A stretch of 64,000 nucleotides of DNA from an uncultured Pirellulales bacterium (GTDB taxonomy: Bacteria > Planctomycetota > Phycisphaerae > Sedimentisphaerales > SM23-30): assembly GCA_964537505.1 (NCBI GenBank), contig CAZICK010000001.1, positions 11,530 to 75,529 of the forward strand, read 5' to 3'. Shown piece after piece: positions 2,998-47,207 of this stretch (positions are counted from its first letter, which is position 1; every line of letters begins with the position of its first letter). The notes beneath the pieces are model-generated. The model did not search any database. It saw nothing but the letters and a program-made list of their open reading frames with translations, and was not told the origin of the DNA. The position numbers and the translations under genes are program-made.

Positions 2998-4866
2998 CTA
3001 GACCGTACTTTCCGTAACTCGCATCACTTCGTCAATCGTTGTAAGACCTGCCTGAACTTTACGAAAACCATCATCCCTCAACGAAACCATTCCTCTTTCC
3101 TTGCATATTCTGCGAAGCTCCGTCACCGTAGGGTTCTTGATAATAATGTCACGATACGTATCATCAATCACCAGCAATTCGTACAGTCCCATCCGACCGG
3201 AAAACCCGGTGTGACGACAATGTTCGCAGCCCGAGCCGCAAAACATATTCTCACTGTTGAACCCGTACATCTCAATAAAACCGATATGCTCGGCTTCCGG
3301 CTCGTAGAGACCTTTACAGTGCGGACATATCTTACGCACCAGGCGCTGAGCCAAAATCGCATTGGTAGAAGCCGCTATCAAATAGGACTCGATTCCTATA
3401 TTAATCATACGGGTAATACTGCTCGGAGCATCATTGGTATGCAGTGTCGATAAAACCAAATGACCGGTCAGAGACGCCTGTATCGCGATCCTGGCCGTCT
3501 CCTCGTCACGAATCTCACCTACCATAATTACATCAGGATCCTGACGTAAAAGAGAACGTAACGTCGCTGCGAAAGTCATACCGATTTTCTCGTGAACCTG
3601 GATCTGCGTTATACCATCCATCTGATATTCCACCGGATCTTCCACCGTCGAAATGTTCATACGCTGAAATTCCATAGTTCTAAGCGCCGCATAAAGCGTC
3701 GTACTCTTGCCCGAACCGGTCGGACCCGTTACCAGAACAATGCCATGAGGTTGATTCACCTGACGGTTGAGAATCTCCAGATTGTCCGGGTCCATACCCA
3801 AATCCAACAGCCTCAATTGATTGCTGCCAACATCCAGAATACGTATAACAACCTTTTCACCATGACAAGCCGGTATAGTAGAAATACGCATGTCAACGCG
3901 ACGCTTGTTCATCACTACGTGAATACGACCGTCCTGAGGAAGACGTCGCTCGGCTATGTCAAGATTGGCCATAATTTTTATACGAGAAACGACAGCCGCG
4001 TGCATGTGACGCGGAGGTGACATCAACTCAAAAAGTATGCCGTCAATGCGATACCTCACCGTGAGCTTATTCTCGCCGGGTTCAACATGGATATCGGAAG
4101 CTCCGTCCCGTACCGCCCTGAGAATTATATAATTGACAAACTTGATTATCGGAGAATTAGCCGCCTCCTGTTCCAGGTTGGAAATGTCTTCCTCTTCGGC
4201 ATCGACCACTTCCACGTCCTCGTCATTGACGTTCTGGATAATATCATCCACCTGGAAATCGGTTTCGGTTGTGTCCTTGTTCAACGAGGCTAATACTTTT
4301 TTGATGTCCTCACTGGGACACACCTTCAGCAATAACTCTTTCTTTGTTTTGCGTTGTATTTCGTCCAGAAGAAAAACATTTGTAGGATCGGTCAACGCGA
4401 CCACGAGCTTGCCTTCCTCGAAACACAACGGGAACACATTATGCGCTTCGATAAAGCTCCTGCCCAAAAGCTCAAAAGCCTGGTGGTCAACCATTTCTTT
4501 ATCGAAACGTATAAACTCAAGGCCGTACTGCTCGGCTACGCACGCCAGCAAATCGACCTCCCGCACCGCGCCCATCTCCAGAAGAACCTGACCTAAACGT
4601 TTGCGTGGGGTTCTCGTATGTATCGAACGGGCCTGCTCCATCTGCTGGGTAGTGATATGTCCACGCTCGAATAAGCGATCTGCCAATGCCTTAGGAGTAT
4701 TGACCGACTCTGTCTCATCCGGCTGCCACAAATCGCACAACTCGACGCCAAGAGACAAAGAGTTGCTGTCTTTCTGGTCATATCCCGGTAAACTGGTATT
4801 TGCCGGAGGTTTGTTCATCGTTTTACTTTCACTCATATCTTTCTCCAGAGCGACCAACATGCTCAA
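2998..4866 (-). CDS. pilB: Type IV pilus assembly / T2SS ATPase, GspE/PilB family, with N-terminal MshEN-type domain
   Basis: 622 aa. GPTGSGKSTT Walker A, VGEIRD, LVLSTLHTNDA, and a C-terminal tetracysteine (CPHC...CEHC). N-terminal segment LGQVLLEMGAVREVDLLACVAEQYGLEFI. Confidence 0.9.
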   Translation of the reverse strand: MSMLVALEKDMSESKTMNKPPANTSLPGYDQKDSNSLSLGVELCDLWQPDETESVNTPKALADRLFERGHITTQQMEQARSIHTRTPRKRLGQVLLEMGAVREVDLLACVAEQYGLEFIRFDKEMVDHQAFELLGRSFIEAHNVFPLCFEEGKLVVALTDPTNVFLLDEIQRKTKKELLLKVCPSEDIKKVLASLNKDTTETDFQVDDIIQNVNDEDVEVVDAEEEDISNLEQEAANSPIIKFVNYIILRAVRDGASDIHVEPGENKLTVRYRIDGILFELMSPPRHMHAAVVSRIKIMANLDIAERRLPQDGRIHVVMNKRRVDMRISTIPACHGEKVVIRILDVGSNQLRLLDLGMDPDNLEILNRQVNQPHGIVLVTGPTGSGKSTTLYAALRTMEFQRMNISTVEDPVEYQMDGITQIQVHEKIGMTFAATLRSLLRQDPDVIMVGEIRDEETARIAIQASLTGHLVLSTLHTNDAPSSITRMINIGIESYLIAASTNAILAQRLVRKICPHCKGLYEPEAEHIGFIEMYGFNSENMFCGSGCEHCRHTGFSGRMGLYELLVIDDTYRDIIIKNPTVTELRRICKERGMVSLRDDGFRKVQAGLTTIDEVMRVTESTV

Positions 4867-4888
4867 TTACCGATCCGCTCATTCGTCC

Positions 4889-5557
4889 TTACATCTGTAA
4901 GATAAATTCAATACCTTCTGCTATCAGAACCACGCTATCCGTGCTAATGGTCTTCACAAGAAATGTGTCCGCGATTTCCTGGCCTTCGCCTACGACCTCA
5001 TTGCTGATTACACATTTCGATCCTGCAACCGTTTGAAGTTTCAACTGACTAAACTTCTTCCTCAGTTCCTTTTCCAGCTCCGCCCGAGCCTTGGATGAAT
5101 CTTGCCCGGCGTTGGCATCAATGATATAACGCGAAAAGGGGTTCTTCTGCAAATCGTCCGCCGCCACCTGCTGATTGGAGGGATAATCGTAGAAGGTCTG
5201 AACCATTGTATCTACGTTTTTAAAGAGATCCTTGCTTTCATCGTTCTCGTTCATCTCCACCAGTTTAGCTAAAGCTGTATCGACTTGCGTCTCCGCGGCC
5301 TTTTCTTCGACCGTCGCTTCCGGGGGCTTCTGATGGCGGCTGAACATAAACACACCAAACATACCTAATACACACGCGCCCAAAAGTATCATCGCCGTAT
5401 TGTTGCGCGATTTGGCTACTGATACACAGGCATGATCCGCCGCCACCGCCTCCGCTAATGCGTCCTGAGACTCGACATCCCAGTCCTGACCGTCGCCATT
5501 TTGCTCAATTCCAAATTTTCCTTCTTTATTATCCATTACCGCCTCTCCTGTATCCAA
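4889..5557 (-). CDS. Hypothetical single-pass membrane protein in pil operon (PilP-position protein)
   Basis: 222-aa ORF between pilO and pilB on the same strand, with gaps of 44 and 22 nt. One TM helix (AMILLGACVLGMFGVFMF). I recognised no family. Confidence 0.5.
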   Translation of the reverse strand: MDTGEAVMDNKEGKFGIEQNGDGQDWDVESQDALAEAVAADHACVSVAKSRNNTAMILLGACVLGMFGVFMFSRHQKPPEATVEEKAAETQVDTALAKLVEMNENDESKDLFKNVDTMVQTFYDYPSNQQVAADDLQKNPFSRYIIDANAGQDSSKARAELEKELRKKFSQLKLQTVAGSKCVISNEVVGEGQEIADTFLVKTISTDSVVLIAEGIEFILQM

Positions 5558-42005: not shown

Positions 42006-42026
42006 GTCAATTGAGTCCGAAAAATC

Positions 42027-42157
42027 GATGTAAGTGCTTATTTTTGGTTCGGGGAAATTGATGTAACTCCTTATTTTTCGTCAGTGGAAATGCGCATAAG
42101 TGCTTATTTTACGTTGTTGGAATTGATGTAAGTGCTTATTTTTGCATAGCGATTGTA
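42027..42157 (+). repeat. Four tandem 32-33-bp repeats with a conserved 19-bp core GATGTAAGTGCTTATTTTT (iteron-like)
   Basis: Units start at 42027, 42060, 42093 and 42125. The cores read GATGTAAGTGCTTATTTTT, GATGTAACTCCTTATTTTT, CGCATAAGTGCTTATTTT and GATGTAAGTGCTTATTTTT. An isolated fifth core, GATGTAAGTGCTTCT, lies at 42720-42734. Confidence 0.85.
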
Positions 42158-42269
42158 ACGATTAGGCAAGATGGGTAAGAAAAAACCGCGAAATTCGGCG
42201 AAATTTGGATGAATTCCGATGAAAAGTGATGTGGTTTGTACCATGTTTGTACCTACTTTTCACCCACTT

Positions 42270-42640
42270 CTTAACAGAAGTGGGTGAGTAAATGGGTAGA
42301 TGAGTAAATGAGTAGATGAGGGGAAGAAAGAGGGCGGACCACTTGGGGGCGCGAACTTGGAGGGAGGCGGAGTTGGAGGGATCGCGAACTTGGGGCGGTT
42401 GCCAACAGAATTGTTGGCAACAGGGTTGTTGGAATATTGCGTAGTCGGATGGGAGAGAGTGGAGGGGTCGGAGGTCGGCGGGGGAGAAAACAGGAGGTGA
42501 AAGGTCGGGATTTTGGTTGACATCTTGGGCGTGGCGTGGTAGAAGAGTTGTGAGTTGGGGGAAGACATAGAGCATGGACGGGAAATGAGAAAGTAAAGGT
42601 ATAAAAGGAGAAAAGAAAGAGGATTTCTGGCCTGTTTTGT
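42270..42640 (+). other. G-rich, C-depleted non-coding tract with many GGGG/GGAGG runs
   Basis: Hand count over 42281-42640 gives about 35 C in 360 nt, against G at roughly 40-45%. It contains a perfect hairpin, GTTGCCAACA-GAAT-TGTTGGCAAC, at about 42409-42432. Confidence 0.8.
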
Positions 42641-42779
42641 GTTTCCGGGCCTGTACCTAGTTTTCCTGGAGAGTACAACCAGCTAATGTTGTCAACAAGA
42701 TAACTGTTAAAAGTGTGGGGATGTAAGTGCTTCTATGGCAAAGAGTTATGTTTTTGGCTTAACAAAAATTGATTTCAAT

Positions 42780-42862
42780 GATAGTGTGATTAAATGTTTT
42801 GTTTTATTTGTTTTGATGTTAAACATCAAAACAAATAAAACAAAACATTTAATCACACTATC
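42780..42862. repeat. 83-nt perfect palindrome (two 41-nt arms, 1-nt centre), AT-rich
   Basis: Left arm 42780-42820 is GATAGTGTGATTAAATGTTTTGTTTTATTTGTTTTGATGTT, the centre is A at 42821, and the right arm 42822-42862 is the exact reverse complement. Confidence 0.95.
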
Positions 42863-43035
42863 GCGATATTGGGACTTTTGGCGGCGGCAGTCGATTTTAG
42901 GCTTTCCGACTTTACTTCTAACCTATAACGTACGTTCTGACCGATATTGGTTCCAGTGGTGTTGATGTTTTTATGTTTTGCCTATTGCTTTTATAAGACA
43001 GATGTGCTAGGATATGAGGATAAGGAGTTTTGATT

Positions 43036-43524
43036 ATGTTGGGTAAACGTAACATGAGGGATAGTATAGGTTATGTTACCTTGGGACTCTTTAGTCATGC
43101 CTTGCTTGATGAACTTTTGGAAGCAAAAAGCAAACCAGATATTGTTCCCGAACGTAAGAAAATGATAGAACTAGCAAGAGAGTCTCTCCTCGCGGTTGAT
43201 TCACCTGAAAAAATAACTAAGCGTTCACGTTTCGCTGATCTTGTTTTTCAAAATTATCAAGAGATTACCACCCTTCGTAGTGTGCTCAATCCCCAAGGGA
43301 TTTTTAAAAGCAGCGAGGAAGCGGAAGAAGCTTTAAATATTATTCTTGGAGATAAAACAGATCGGGAAAAAAGAGGCCAGCATATTGAAAAGACAATAGG
43401 GTTTTTCCGTGAACTTGCCAAGAAGTCTATAATAAATGCAGAGACACCGGAAGAACGAGTGCCCCCGGGGGTGAGACAGGTTGCGTCATCAAGCAGTTTT
43501 GCACAATTATACAGCGGCTTATAA
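43036..43524 (+). CDS. Hypothetical small, predicted all-helical protein (cassette gene 1)
   Basis: ATG 43036 lies 8 nt after AAGGAG (43022-43027). 162 aa, Lys/Glu-rich, with no motif I recognise. Low GC. Confidence 0.6.
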   Translation: MLGKRNMRDSIGYVTLGLFSHALLDELLEAKSKPDIVPERKKMIELARESLLAVDSPEKITKRSRFADLVFQNYQEITTLRSVLNPQGIFKSSEEAEEALNIILGDKTDREKRGQHIEKTIGFFRELAKKSIINAETPEERVPPGVRQVASSSSFAQLYSGL

Positions 43525-44842
43525 GCTTGTTTCTTCCCTAAAAGAAATCATATCAAAAAGCCGAGCCGATAATTCCTATCCTAAATATTCAGATCAATTT
43601 CTCCTTTTCTGCCAACGTACGGCTGACGATACCCTTAGGTATCTCGAGAAGTCCGGTAATCCTAAAACCGCTAAACTAGATTTTGATATACTTATTTCTA
43701 AACTATCCGCGATTAGGCAAGGTTGGGAGCTACTCCACACTTTTATAAAACCGGTTCTCGATGCAGATAGCTTAAAGGTACCTTATTCGTTAATTCAATT
43801 TCTCAGCGAACACACCGGGAAACTGAGTGTGGTTAAGGGAACAAAAATTGTCATAGAATCAAACCCGGAGTTGAACTATTTCCAGCATCGTCATACTGAG
43901 CTTATAATAGCAATTAAATTTCTTCTAATTTTGATAGGAGAACCGGAGAATTTGACCGAAAGAGTCAAGATTAAGCGTTTAGGTTTTCTTGGTTTGCCCT
44001 ATTCACAATCTAAAAGTCTATTTATGAATTGCCTTCTATACCATGAAATTGGCCATTTTATAGCCGAAGAAGCGGGTGTTTTTTCCACAAAGATACGTAA
44101 AGATACGAAGGGGAAACTTGAACCCTTATTCGAGGAATATACGGAATGGGCCGGAAACATAATTTTAGTGTGGATGGAAGAACTTTTTGCTGATCTTGTG
44201 GCAGTTAAACTTTTGGGACCGGCATACACTTTAGCCTACATGGAATTATATCGCTCGGTTATTGATTTGTCTTCAGATCAAATTTTAGAATTTGATATTG
44301 ATCACCCTTGTGCCCCCTTAAGATTTCGGGAACAAGTTAAAGCTCTTAAAAAAGATAAATGGGAACAACACATTAAGTTAGAGCAGTGGGAGAGACTTAA
44401 AGGGGTATCACGATCAAAGGAGAGTGCATATAAGTCTTCGCTTATATTACATATTAATGATCCTTACATGGTGAAAATATGGCAAGGTCTAATTAAGTTT
44501 TTCTGCCGCCCCGATATAATAAAAACAGTTCATGATTTAGCGGATGAATTTGTAGAGGGTAGGGAAAACCCGTGCGAACATTTTATAAAATCTGCTGAAA
44601 GAATACAAGAATGCCTTGAGCATGGAATTGTACCTTCATTTGCCGGGAAAAATGGTGACATGCCCCATCCAACCGCTATTATTAATGGCGCCATGTTTTT
44701 TTGGCTTTCTGGAATGGACGATCTTTATCAGATAGTCCCAAGTATTCACAAAGAGAAAGTAAAGGATAGAGTTGCATTAGAACAACGTGTTGAAATGTGG
44801 TGTATGAAGGCGATAGAAGATTGGCTAATAAAAAGAAAATAA
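43481..44842 (+). CDS. Hypothetical protein with HExxH zinc-peptidase-like motif (ImmA/IrrE-like arrangement) (cassette gene 2)
   Basis: 453-aa ORF opening at TTG 43481, with no internal ATG for more than 150 codons. HEIGH at codons 44042-44056, followed about 40 aa later by MEELFADLVAVKLLGPAY. Overlaps gene 1 by 44 nt. Confidence 0.65.
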   Translation: MRHQAVLHNYTAAYKLVSSLKEIISKSRADNSYPKYSDQFLLFCQRTADDTLRYLEKSGNPKTAKLDFDILISKLSAIRQGWELLHTFIKPVLDADSLKVPYSLIQFLSEHTGKLSVVKGTKIVIESNPELNYFQHRHTELIIAIKFLLILIGEPENLTERVKIKRLGFLGLPYSQSKSLFMNCLLYHEIGHFIAEEAGVFSTKIRKDTKGKLEPLFEEYTEWAGNIILVWMEELFADLVAVKLLGPAYTLAYMELYRSVIDLSSDQILEFDIDHPCAPLRFREQVKALKKDKWEQHIKLEQWERLKGVSRSKESAYKSSLILHINDPYMVKIWQGLIKFFCRPDIIKTVHDLADEFVEGRENPCEHFIKSAERIQECLEHGIVPSFAGKNGDMPHPTAIINGAMFFWLSGMDDLYQIVPSIHKEKVKDRVALEQRVEMWCMKAIEDWLIKRK

Positions 44843-45561
44843 AAACTGAAAGACAAGTTGGGGTTCTTACCAAAAAGGATATAGAGGATCGACTCGAAAA
44901 ACAGATTTTTGAACCTTCGTCCTTGATAATTACGCCATATCCAAAAGGCATTGATAGCGATTCAATTGACTTAGGGCTTGGAAACCATTTCTTTGTTCCT
45001 CGAGGGCACCGAACACCTTGTTTTGTTCCGGGTCTCACTAATCCTTTGCATTTGTATTCTGAACAATATATTCCGATGGGATATTATCTGGTTCTCCCTG
45101 CCCATCATACTGTTTTGGGATCTACCTTAGAGTATATTAAATTGCCTTCAGATGTTTCTGGTGAAATTCTTACAAAATCTTCCTGGGCACGGACATTTAT
45201 AACTATAGAAACTGCCCCATGGATTCATCCCTTGTACAGAGGTTGCCTAACGTTAGAAATCGCTAACGTTTCCAATACCCCTGTTGTTCTCTATCCTGGA
45301 GTTAAAATTGCTCAATTGGTATTATTGAATACGATGCGTGATATTGCGAAGAAGAATAAAGATGAAATAGAAGGAACCTACTTTGGCCCTGTGCGACCCG
45401 AGCCAGCAATATTAAAGAAACCAAGAGAAGCTCTTTCGGATCTTGGGATAAGTAGAGAAGATGTTACGTATCCCTTGGATGAATATTTTGATCATGAAGA
45501 ATACCAGGAGTATGTTGCTAATTCTTTAAGGGAACAGGGATACAAAGTTGAATCACCTTAG
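44797..45561 (+). CDS. dCTP deaminase / dUTPase-fold protein with about 60-aa C-terminal extension (cassette gene 3)
   Basis: SIDLGLGNHFFV, LVLPAHHTVLGSTLEYIKLPSDVSGEILTKSSWAR and PLYRGCLTLEIANVSNTPVVLYPGVKIAQLVLL align by eye with Dcd family blocks. The start is uncertain (GTG 44797/44800 or TTG 44821). It overlaps the end of gene 2. Confidence 0.75.
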   Translation: MVYEGDRRLANKKKIKTERQVGVLTKKDIEDRLEKQIFEPSSLIITPYPKGIDSDSIDLGLGNHFFVPRGHRTPCFVPGLTNPLHLYSEQYIPMGYYLVLPAHHTVLGSTLEYIKLPSDVSGEILTKSSWARTFITIETAPWIHPLYRGCLTLEIANVSNTPVVLYPGVKIAQLVLLNTMRDIAKKNKDEIEGTYFGPVRPEPAILKKPREALSDLGISREDVTYPLDEYFDHEEYQEYVANSLREQGYKVESP

Positions 45562-46055
45562 CTCTGCAATCACGTTTTCAGGGTTCGGGTAGATGTTAGG
45601 CGGATTCAACTCGTAAGAGCGATGAATGTTAGACGATTGTACAACAATGAGTTGACGCCAAGAAAAAACGTTCGGGGGCTCCAGTTGGGAAATCTCCCGA
45701 TCTTACATCGTGGGCTCGTATATCGACAGGATAAATTGCGGGCATGGCCGAGGCGGCGGAAGATGGATTGGCTATCGCGGCTCTGGGCTTGGCTTCGTGT
45801 CCTGCTTTCGCTGGAATGACAGAGGGGGGCGGGGATGACAGGAAGAGATTGCCGCGTCGCTGCGCAAAATTCGCGTGGGCTAAGAGCCCACTCTACAAAA
45901 CTGAACGGTTACAAAAGTACAATGTCCCCTTTTCTTCCCACAAGACCTATGAAAAATGCAAAATCGCATAAAAAGAACTCTGTAAAGAGGCTACAATCTC
46001 TATAATAATAACAGATCGAGTACAACAGGCAAACCACCGAGCCAGAAAGTCGCGG

Positions 46056-46125: not shown

Positions 46126-46473
46126 ATGATTAAAAAACCTTATGAACGATTTGAGCAGTCGGAGTTGATTCTGAGAGACGAGTTGGCGATTGATCGCACC
46201 TTATTATCAAATGAACGGACGCTTCTGGCGTACCTGCGGTCCGCAGCGGCCATGATGATTGCAGGCGTGTCGATTATTCATTTCTCAGGTGAGGGTTGGT
46301 TCCGCGCGATAGGCTTTGCATGCATTCCTGGGGCTCTTTTGACTTCGCTGATTGGACTGCTTCGATTCCGGAAGATGGACAAAGCTATTTCAATTGTCCG
46401 AAATCAGTCGAAAAAGAAGTTAACAACCGGTAACGCATCTGTAGGACCAACATATCCAAATGATAAGCAATAA
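46126..46473 (+). CDS. DUF202 (YidH-like) small membrane protein
   Basis: 115 aa. LRDELAIDRTLLSNERTLLAYLRSAAAMMIAGVSI is the DUF202 signature. Confidence 0.8.
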   Translation: MIKKPYERFEQSELILRDELAIDRTLLSNERTLLAYLRSAAAMMIAGVSIIHFSGEGWFRAIGFACIPGALLTSLIGLLRFRKMDKAISIVRNQSKKKLTTGNASVGPTYPNDKQ

Positions 46474-46699
46474 GGCGTATGTATGGAGGGACACCTATTT
46501 TTATCTGATTTGCCTTTGTTTTTTTAGGCATGGGAAAGCTTGGAATTGTCTTTTGTGATTGAGATAATGGGATAGTGGAGACAAGGCCACCACCCCCACG
46601 ACAATTCGTCGCCTTCAACTGGTTATCCCTGGCAGGTTGTACCTGGACAGAGCCTACTTCCGTTTGGCCAGCCGATACTATTCTTGTCGATGGTTCAAT

Positions 46700-46804
46700 T
46701 ACTGAGATAGGCACCTTTTCCACCAGGTGTTGGCGTAAAATCTGAACTTTCTGTTGGGCCGAGAATTTCCTACGGTCGGTCTTCATAGACATCTCCTTTG
46801 GCAA
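46700..46804 (-). pseudogene. Remnant of an IS3-family transposase OrfA (HTH N-terminus only)
   Basis: The first ~35 aa of - strand ORF 46385-46804 read MPKEMSMKTDRRKFSAQQKVQILRQHLVEKVPISV, typical of IS3-family OrfA starts. The rest of the ORF has no transposase character and overlaps the DUF202 gene end. Confidence 0.5.
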
Positions 46805-46910
46805 ATCATAAAGATTAACTAAATTTCAGGAAATGTCCAATTCCGACTGAAGCATCACATCGTGACAGTGAGTGATGGAAGACACAAGGGCGGGAGATAG
46901 ACCCCTGCCT

Positions 46911-47005
46911 TCGCAGGGGTGACAGTTGTTCGCAGGGGTGACAATTGTTCGCAAGGGTGACAATTGTTCGCAGGGGTGACAGTTGTTCGCGGTGGTGACA
47001 ATTGT
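46911..47005. repeat. 5 x 19-bp tandem repeat TCGCAGGGGTGACARTTGT
   Basis: Units at 46911, 46930, 46949, 46968 and 46987. The first unit is continuous with a REP-like hairpin, ACCCCTGCCTTCGCAGGGGT (46901-46920). Confidence 0.9.
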
Positions 47006-47207
47006 TGGGTGGGGGGTGGTTTTTTGATCTTTTGGGTCAGGGGTTTTCGCAAAGGATGCCGGTTTTTTACTGTTTTTAAGGCGAAATAATTGGGAATTAC
47101 CACAGATTTTTGATTTTTCTTAAAGCAGATTTTTTTCTTGCTTTTTCTTTTTAGATCGTGTTACAATGATGGGTTATTGTATATTAGGGGATATGATTGA
47201 GAAGAAT

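Follow-up and report, generated by a model that had tools for sequence, protein, structure and literature searches.

The subject of this analysis is a three-gene cassette in a 64,000-nucleotide stretch of DNA (hereafter the window) from an uncultured Pirellulales bacterium (contig CAZICK010000001.1, positions 11,530 to 75,529 of the forward strand). The genes, labelled g1, g2 and g3 in 5′ to 3′ order on the + strand (Table 1), encode a small helical protein, a protein with an HExxH metal-binding motif, and a protein with the fold of deoxycytidine triphosphate (dCTP) deaminase, or Dcd. We find that the three genes are inherited, packed and evolving as one unit, that the triad is shared by hundreds of uncultured bacteria from soil and sediment, and that its composition is foreign in every host examined. 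The locus is best explained as an accessory operon that is self-contained and was acquired horizontally, and in which two dedicated partners control g3. As to what the operon does, we tentatively favor an accessory, protease-gated Dcd-fold deaminase module that is triggered by conflict or stress, a reading to which we give somewhat less than an even chance. Defense is a candidate role, and is unproven.

More than 100 independent loci carry these three genes in identical order and with the same packing. A g2 pattern was scanned against one genome for each of 185,579 GTDB species and was present in 26, scattered patchily over two phyla: Planctomycetota (Sedimentisphaerales and Phycisphaerae) and Acidobacteriota (Terracidiphilus, Acidobacteriaceae, Bryobacteraceae and Ca. 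Angelobacter). In all 26 species g3 lies immediately 3′ of g2, and an iterated g1 profile places g1 directly 5′ of g2 in essentially every complete locus. The g3 signatures CLTLEIAN and APW[IV]HPxYR occur in at least 531 metagenome stretches; among the best 80 of these, g1 and g2 are present in 39 of the 41 that have at least 1.9 kb of upstream sequence. Gene boundaries overlap family-wide (medians of −10 and −37 nt), and the pairwise identities of g1, g2 and g3 are correlated across 54 loci (r = 0.85–0.93). At least three lineages have independent fusions of g2 to Dcd: P0065, a 744-aa protein present on 5 contigs, P0289 and P0314. An earlier note on this DNA had proposed co-occurrence across genomes as a check, and the GTDB species, the metagenome loci and the fusions make its outcome strongly positive. 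In hosts of 46–68% GC, all 53 loci compared have a lower GC in the cassette than in its flanks, with a mean difference of 8 points.

In the window, all three open reading frames (ORFs) were found on the + strand at the positions given by the earlier note, whose description of three overlapping and coupled genes is confirmed by these ORFs and by the family-wide overlaps. The g1/g2 overlap is 44 nt and the g2/g3 overlap 46 or 22 nt, depending on the g3 start, and an AAGGAG Shine-Dalgarno sequence lies 8 nt 5′ of the g1 ATG at 43036. The low GC and foreign look reported from spot counts also hold up: GC is 0.36–0.41 over 42500–45500 (0.38–0.41 in the three genes) versus approximately 0.50 on either side, and GC at third codon positions (GC3) is 0.30–0.33 in the cassette versus 0.57–0.62 in the flanking type II secretion system (T2SS) genes and typA. 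In the window species the cassette lies between the T2SS operon and DUF202/typA, not at the origin, and it is present in every contig that runs beyond gspM, with no presence/absence polymorphism found. The window ORFs are intact, carry every catalytic residue and are identical in at least seven samples.

The assignment of g3 to the Dcd fold, made by eye in the earlier note, is borne out by profile searches. The protein matches Pfam DCD (PF22769) at 1e-25 and 91 bits (cut-off 27), TIGR02274 at 102.4 bits (above the cut-off of 92.8) and phrog_1663 at 1e-31, and its best PDB match is M. tuberculosis Dcd at 1e-14. We aligned 117 close relatives with an E. coli Dcd reference that is 100% identical to 1XS1, and residue numbers here are those of E. 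coli. The deaminase triad S111, R115 and E138 is invariant across the 117 relatives and the window protein, and the TLEI glutamate that had been equated with E138 aligns at exactly that position. Four other active-site positions differ consistently: R110 is replaced by Lys and R126 by Trp in 117 of 117 relatives, and H121 by Glu and D128 by His in 116. In the lid, Y171, K178 and Q182 are not kept, and a conserved GTYxGPVxPEP motif is present instead. The triphosphate and sugar contacts and lid of characterized Dcd enzymes (R126, D128, Y171, K178, Q182) are therefore not those of g3, which also carries N- and C-terminal extensions relative to E. coli Dcd. Members score 1e-50 to 1e-69 against their own kind and 1e-9 to 1e-14 against solved Dcds. 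The retained triad, together with the changed pocket and lid positions, makes g3 a distinct Dcd clade, one that has probably kept deaminase chemistry with an altered nucleotide pocket or lid. A 444-aa g3 homologue was also seen (L129, 6001–7335), in which a Dcd domain at residues 28–170 is followed by approximately 270 residues with no Pfam match.

The homologue search for g2 gave 71 clusters, with g1 and g2 clusters often on contigs of equal size, and an exhaustive profile search extended the family to at least 198 representatives at 50% clustering (E ≤ 1e-30). Five residues, H188, E189, H192, E234 and D238, are invariant in 67 sequences. The AlphaFold2 model is confident, with a predicted local distance difference test score (pLDDT) of 92.8 and a predicted template modeling score (pTM) of 0.92. 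It places a beta-strand (167–173) ahead of the HExxH helix (182–198, with H188, E189 and H192) and a further helix (203–245) bearing E234 and D238, between large helical N- and C-terminal domains, with no GAF-like domain at the C-terminus. This is the layout of gluzincins, with a strand before the HExxH helix and Glu and Asp(+4) on the helix that follows. No relative was found for g2 in NCBIfam, in PADLOC or in PDB by sequence, nor in Pfam above noise for any of the 67 members; the family profile found none in PDB, IrrE and CapP included, and Foldseek searches of the model against PDB and BFVD found none either (best PDB E 0.48). Weak Peptidase_M48 matches in 3 of the 67 members (E = 0.029) were treated as noise, and a phrog_24479 match (E 0.0028) was dismissed likewise. 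On sequence and model, g2 represents a new family whose metal site is of gluzincin type, and the predicted zinc site is complete. We infer that g2 is a regulator or activator, predicted to be a protease, of the Dcd-fold enzyme.

The first gene is the fastest-evolving partner. Its homologue search returned 48 clusters, its model is an all-helical bundle (pLDDT 84.6), and it has no Foldseek match in PDB and no match in Pfam, NCBIfam or PADLOC. It could act as an adaptor, an inhibitor or a substrate. Mean pairwise identity rises from 26% in g1 to 33% in g2 and 54% in g3, a gradient that fits a conserved effector with fast-evolving control parts. Some copies are decayed. Three loci (L047–L049) keep a 97-aa C-terminal g2 remnant before an intact g3, g2 is split or truncated in several others, and g3 stands without intact g1 and g2 in L047–L049, L084 and L089. 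Such orphan copies argue against g1 or g2 being an obligatory antitoxin and for a g3 that is latent or benign on its own, and a latent effector that needs activation fits them better than a toxin that needs an antitoxin. A further candidate for decay, L131, appears pseudogenized and is not relied on, because flanking genes on the same contig are also frameshifted. Separately, approximately 2 kb 3′ of a split cassette on a 6-kb contig (L103), g1 occurs again together with the first 60 residues of another g2 (4601–5369), which suggests a tandem or duplicated cassette.

Table 1. Genes and motifs of the cassette in the window, and related loci that lie near replication-origin genes.
Feature	Position or locus	Strand	Description
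g1	43036-43524 (alternative start 43030)	+	162 aa, ORF
g2	43481-44842 (alternative start 43499)	+	453 aa, ORF
g3	44797-45561 (alternative start 44821)	+	254 aa, ORF
g2 HEIGH (HExxH metal-binding, catalytic motif)	44042-44056	+	translation; invariant in g2 family
g2 WMEELFADLVAVKLLGP helix with E234 and D238 (ExxxD; E234 probable third zinc ligand)	44171-44221	+	translation
g3 active-site block KSSWAR...PWIHPLYRG...TLEIAN	45175-45267	+	translation
Loci near origin genes	L015, L019, L024-L026, L039, L041, L044, L047, L069, L076, L124, L129		dnaA-dnaN-gyrB; others gyrA, dnaE, gidA/gidB, parA/parB

There is a possible mechanism that accommodates these parts. In the favored reading, g2 would be a zinc protease bound to the Dcd trimer, and infection, DNA damage or replication stress would cause it to cleave an inhibitory element and so turn the deaminase on. 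That element could be g1, the C-terminal extension of g3 or a repressor. The output would be a divergent Dcd-fold deaminase acting on a deoxycytidine nucleotide, most likely converting dCTP to deoxyuridine triphosphate (dUTP). Active g3 would collapse the dCTP pool or flood the cell with dUTP, and DNA replication of the invader or of the cell would be arrested. Such logic is that of a conflict or stress module, for defense or dormancy, built from parts unlike those of known dCTP-depletion systems. The rate gradient, the uniformly foreign composition, the patchy distribution and the decay are the reasons for which we favor it. A more specific proposal, which we hold to be doubtful, is that the cassette represents an unrecognized class of immunity or dormancy, in which a protease of new fold is coupled to a Dcd-fold deaminase that a trigger unleashes, sited preferentially at the chromosomal origin where it would monitor or arrest replication. 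Its output could be dCTP depletion, a dUTP flood or the deamination of a non-canonical cytosine substrate, the last being hinted at by the altered triphosphate pocket of g3.

Several observations weigh against a conflict- or stress-triggered module. In the 57 longer loci, dnaA, dnaN, gyrB, gyrA or dnaE lies no more than 10 kb from the cassette in 21, or in some 14–16 of roughly 45 loci once duplicates are removed. These genes stand on either side of the cassette, in several arrangements and orientations and in both phyla; among immediate neighbors GyrB is the commonest (5–6 cases), and DnaN, GidA, GidB, ParA and ParB are also recurrent. A single-copy locus would not favor the origin region anything like this often by chance, and the association suggests that the cassette is tied to replication, not to phages. 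This siting, seen in about a third of the longer loci, was not anticipated by the earlier note, and it keeps a role in replication or in the homeostasis of deoxynucleoside triphosphates (dNTPs) alive. Defense genes, by contrast with what had been expected of a defense cassette, are scarce: among 148 immediate neighbors (approximately 77 loci), PADLOC recognized only 2 Cas1, 2 type IIG restriction-modification and 4 mad2-like proteins. The commonest Pfam families among these neighbors are GyrB, EF-G/TypA and HTH_3, and since most neighbors are housekeeping genes, the cassette is not one of defense islands. Synteny is conserved within some acidobacterial clades, and in the window species the cassette is fixed. 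With regard to the parts themselves, g2 matches no peptidase family or fold by Pfam, PDB profile, hhalign or Foldseek, and several triphosphate-binding residues of E. coli Dcd are missing from g3, which bears on the proposed substrate.

Replication-linked control of dNTP pools is the main rival and a serious one, although we judge it unlikely. In this account g3 would be a working dCTP deaminase, or a second and regulated one, feeding the synthesis of deoxythymidine triphosphate; g1 and g2 would be regulators particular to certain lineages, adjusting its activity to replication or DNA damage, and damage-inducible expression would come from the repressor present at some loci. The repeated siting by dnaA-dnaN-gyrB, gyrA, dnaE, gidA/B and parA/B, in varied arrangements and both phyla, speaks for it, as do the missing defense-island context, the g3 score above the NCBI dCTP-deaminase equivalog cut-off, the clade-level synteny in places with fixation in the window species, and the survival of g3 after g1 and g2 decay. 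It is harder to reconcile with GC below that of the flanks at every one of the 53 loci and the strongly deviant GC3 in the window, with a pattern-scan distribution of only 26 in 185,579 species, or with a window copy that sits between the T2SS operon and typA and not at the origin. The fast evolution of the control proteins and the frequent breakage of g2 do not suit a housekeeping role either, and in g3 the positions R126, D128 and H121 and the lid depart from characterized Dcd with at most rare exceptions among relatives. The housekeeping Dcds of E. coli and M. tuberculosis are not known to have a protease-like partner, which also counts against this rival. No second, canonical dcd gene was found in the window and approximately 1 Mb of flanking sequence, a span that is uninformative for whole genomes.

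The earlier note had described g2 as ImmA/IrrE-like, and a second rival builds on that description: g2 would be an M78-like sensor peptidase whose sole substrate is an adjacent Cro/C1 repressor, and g3 would be induced cargo. Part of the likeness stands. The HExxH motif and the downstream Glu motif are conserved, and the g2 segment EELFADLVAVKLLGP (E..A(D/N)..A..LL.P) is in the same register as IrrE IETLCNVGAAAILMP, with an E-to-P spacing of 13 residues in both. A divergent gene of the HTH_3/Cro-C1 type (helix-turn-helix, HTH) lies 5′ of g1 in 14 of the 57 longer loci, operator-like palindromes precede g1 in L013 and L044, and CapH/CapP and DdrO/IrrE are precedents for a switch of this kind. 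Family membership, on the other hand, finds no backing: Peptidase_M78 (PF06114) matches 0 of 67 g2 members at E ≤ 10, an hhalign comparison of the family profile with IrrE yields an alignment of only 10 columns, around HExxH, with a probability of 0.5, Foldseek retrieves neither IrrE nor CapP, and a GAF-like C-terminal domain is missing from the model. Membership of g2 in ImmA/IrrE was thus rejected on the Pfam scan, the PDB profile search and the hhalign comparison, and the resemblance, as judged from sequence, is at the motif level only. The window and other planctomycete loci lack the repressor gene, and g2 stays intact there. Finally, fusion to Dcd and strict co-evolution with g3 indicate that g2 acts on or with g3. 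A repressor-only switch is therefore improbable. As a side observation, four loci without the HTH_3 gene (L020, L022, L034, L038) have a conserved divergent ORF of 155–174 aa (cluster c11, minus strand) at the same place; it has no Pfam match and may be another regulator.

A third possibility is a two-enzyme channel in which g3 makes dUTP and g2, instead of being a protease, is a metal-dependent nucleotide pyrophosphatase that converts dUTP to deoxyuridine monophosphate. In g3 a His takes the place of the Asp at E. coli D128 (as it does in 116 of the 117 g3 relatives), and for this reason g3 may lack the dUTPase half-reaction, which a partner could supply. Fusions of g2 and g3 in several lineages are typical of consecutive enzymes, and the HExxH protein YgjP of E. 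coli is annotated as a UTP pyrophosphatase. Against these points, no similarity to YgjP/DUF45, or to any nucleotide hydrolase, was detected in g2, a beta-strand followed by HExxH...ExxxD is how peptidases (gluzincins) are laid out, and g1, the repressor, the fast evolution of g2 and the foreign composition are left unexplained. We regard the channel as quite improbable.

Searches for mobile copies were near-empty. Neither the 72,556 plasmids nor the 50,697 phage genomes searched contain a homologue of g2, g3 has no relative in the viral contigs of IMG/VR, and g1 has none there by its own search. One IMG/VR contig (L043, 9585–10954; IMGVR_UViG_3300050821_006155) matches g2 and, alongside it, carries g1, without Dcd. 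Its g2 is truncated, with the C-terminal half replaced after the metal site and HEMGH and EEIFCD retained, and the pair lies directly upstream of DUF5681 and large-terminase genes. This viral copy could be a captured fragment or a counter-measure. At the window locus no integrase, tRNA gene or att-like repeats were found. A mobile or phage origin was considered and rejected on the near-empty IMG/VR, plasmid and cultured-phage searches and the lack of a tRNA gene or integrase at the window locus. That the cassette is a decaying mobile-element or prophage remnant with no present function in the window genome is very improbable, for the low GC and GC3, the repeat-rich flanks, the possible insertion sequence fragment on the 3′ side and the one viral contig are outweighed by three intact and invariant window ORFs, by long-term conservation of the family across phyla, and by the empty searches just described. 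In some acidobacterial loci a tRNA gene does occur nearby: tRNA-Gly(GCC) lies directly upstream of dnaA in L025, L026, L039, L047, L069 and L070, the cassette lies 1.7–2.2 kb beyond it in L047 and L069, and in some Bryobacterales-type loci the tRNA-Gly gene adjoining dnaA separates dnaA from the cassette. This gene may be an integration site.

The flanks of the window cassette hold several further features. The 83-nt perfect palindrome of the earlier note is real (42780–42862; 41-nt arms, 1-nt spacer, AT-rich, approximately 170 nt upstream of g1). Related planctomycete loci have no equivalent 5′ of g1; the palindrome is therefore not counted as part of the system, and it seems specific to the window lineage. 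Just 3′ of the T2SS operon, a GATGTAAGTGCTTATTT-like motif is present in 4–5 copies spaced 33–65 nt apart (42011–42141), with a further copy near the palindrome at 42718–42735; from its sequence, the array looks like an iteron or protein-binding array. The stretch at 42250–42700 is non-coding and strongly purine/G-skewed (GC skew 0.45–0.49) with short G-rich repeats, and it yields spurious proline-rich minus-strand ORFs, such as 42162–42575, which was called as a 137-aa protein. Three contigs with the gspM of the window species (L135, L137, L138) stop soon after gspM, just upstream of the G-skewed stretch. On the 3′ side, the tandem repeats are likewise real: a 19-nt unit, TTCGCAGGGGTGACAATTG, is present in 5–6 tandem copies at 46910–47025, approximately 140 nt upstream of typA, with a degenerate copy at 45807–45846. 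The IS3 remnant is not confirmed, as the minus-strand ORF at 46385–46804, whose N-terminus (…RRKFSAQQKVQILRQHL…) resembles IS3 OrfA, has no Pfam match at E ≤ 0.01. Beyond DUF202, a strain variant (L004/L134) has GH95 and glutamine synthetase genes and not typA, which places a rearrangement breakpoint there. A replication origin was sought in the window by GC skew, and the signal was not clear; a scan for promoters and terminators gave results no better than shuffled controls.

The significance of the cassette depends on which account is right. A trigger-activated deaminase would be a second, unrelated fold (Dcd/dUTPase versus zinc CDA) for nucleotide-depletion immunity or dormancy, and would bring a new control principle, namely a dedicated and sometimes fused metalloprotease-like partner. 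A replication-linked regulator of dNTPs would be the first Dcd enzyme with dedicated protein regulators, in a module located beside dnaA-dnaN-gyrB in two hard-to-culture phyla. Either way, g2 is a large conserved family with a confident model, an intact metal site and no relative detected in Pfam, PDB or BFVD, and the changed nucleotide pocket of the g3 subclade predicts a changed substrate or mode of regulation. The association with the origin region and the g2 fold without a detected match are the most surprising elements.

The earlier note did not recognize this architecture, and comparison with known systems agrees. PADLOC has no match for g1, g2 or g3, no description of the cassette was found in a literature search, and the architecture is undescribed in PADLOC, Pfam, NCBIfam and the literature searched. 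With housekeeping Dcd and bifunctional Dcd:dUTPase (E. coli 1XS1, M. tuberculosis 2QLP, M. jannaschii 1OGH), g3 shares the beta-barrel dUTPase-like fold, as determined by hidden Markov model, and the catalytic Ser, Arg and Glu. It differs from them in its altered pocket and lid, its extended termini, its g1 and g2 partners and its occasional fusion to g2. For g2, the relevant comparisons are IrrE/DdrO, ImmA/ImmR and CapP/CapH (Peptidase_M78/COG2856). CapP and IrrE combine an M78 peptidase domain with an HTH-like linker and a GAF domain; once activated by single-stranded DNA or DNA damage, they cleave an adjacent HTH repressor. The register of HExxH and the downstream Glu motif is shared with g2, a Cro/C1-type HTH gene is frequent beside the cassette, and the logic of stress-triggered proteolytic de-repression is the one proposed here. 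In contrast, g2 is approximately 450 aa, has large helical N- and C-terminal domains and no GAF, is similar to these peptidases only at the motif, is conserved in the window although no repressor gene is present there, and in some lineages forms one polypeptide with the effector. Gluzincins (thermolysin-type, and the minigluzincins M48 and M56) share with g2 the strand-then-HExxH helix and the Glu and Asp four apart on the next helix, whereas g2 has no family-level match or Foldseek neighbor among them, and its peptidase activity is putative.

The closest systems in terms of outcome are defensive deaminases. The published defensive dCTP deaminase joins a zinc-dependent cytosine-deaminase (CDA-fold) domain to an N-terminal kinase domain (Tal et al., 10.1101/2021.04.26.441389), much as the earlier note stated, and AvcD/AvcI is described as a deoxycytidylate deaminase toxin-antitoxin system controlled by a small RNA (sRNA) (PMC10511110). 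Neither has the Dcd fold or a protease-like partner. Model matches show neither of the known plans for dNTP-depletion defense, a CDA fold with a kinase or P-loop domain or an HD dGTPase, in any of g1, g2 or g3. The outcome would be the same, conditional deamination of a deoxycytidine nucleotide that halts replication, if the protease-gated module is the correct reading. The enzymes differ, as defensive dCTP deaminase and AvcD use the zinc CDA fold with a kinase or P-loop domain and g3 has the metal-independent Dcd fold. So does their control, which is transcription shut-off or an sRNA in the known systems and, in the cassette, would lie with the HExxH protein g2 and the helical protein g1. On this reading the activity, conditional deamination of deoxycytidine nucleotides, would be of a known kind, and the parts that carry it out would be new.

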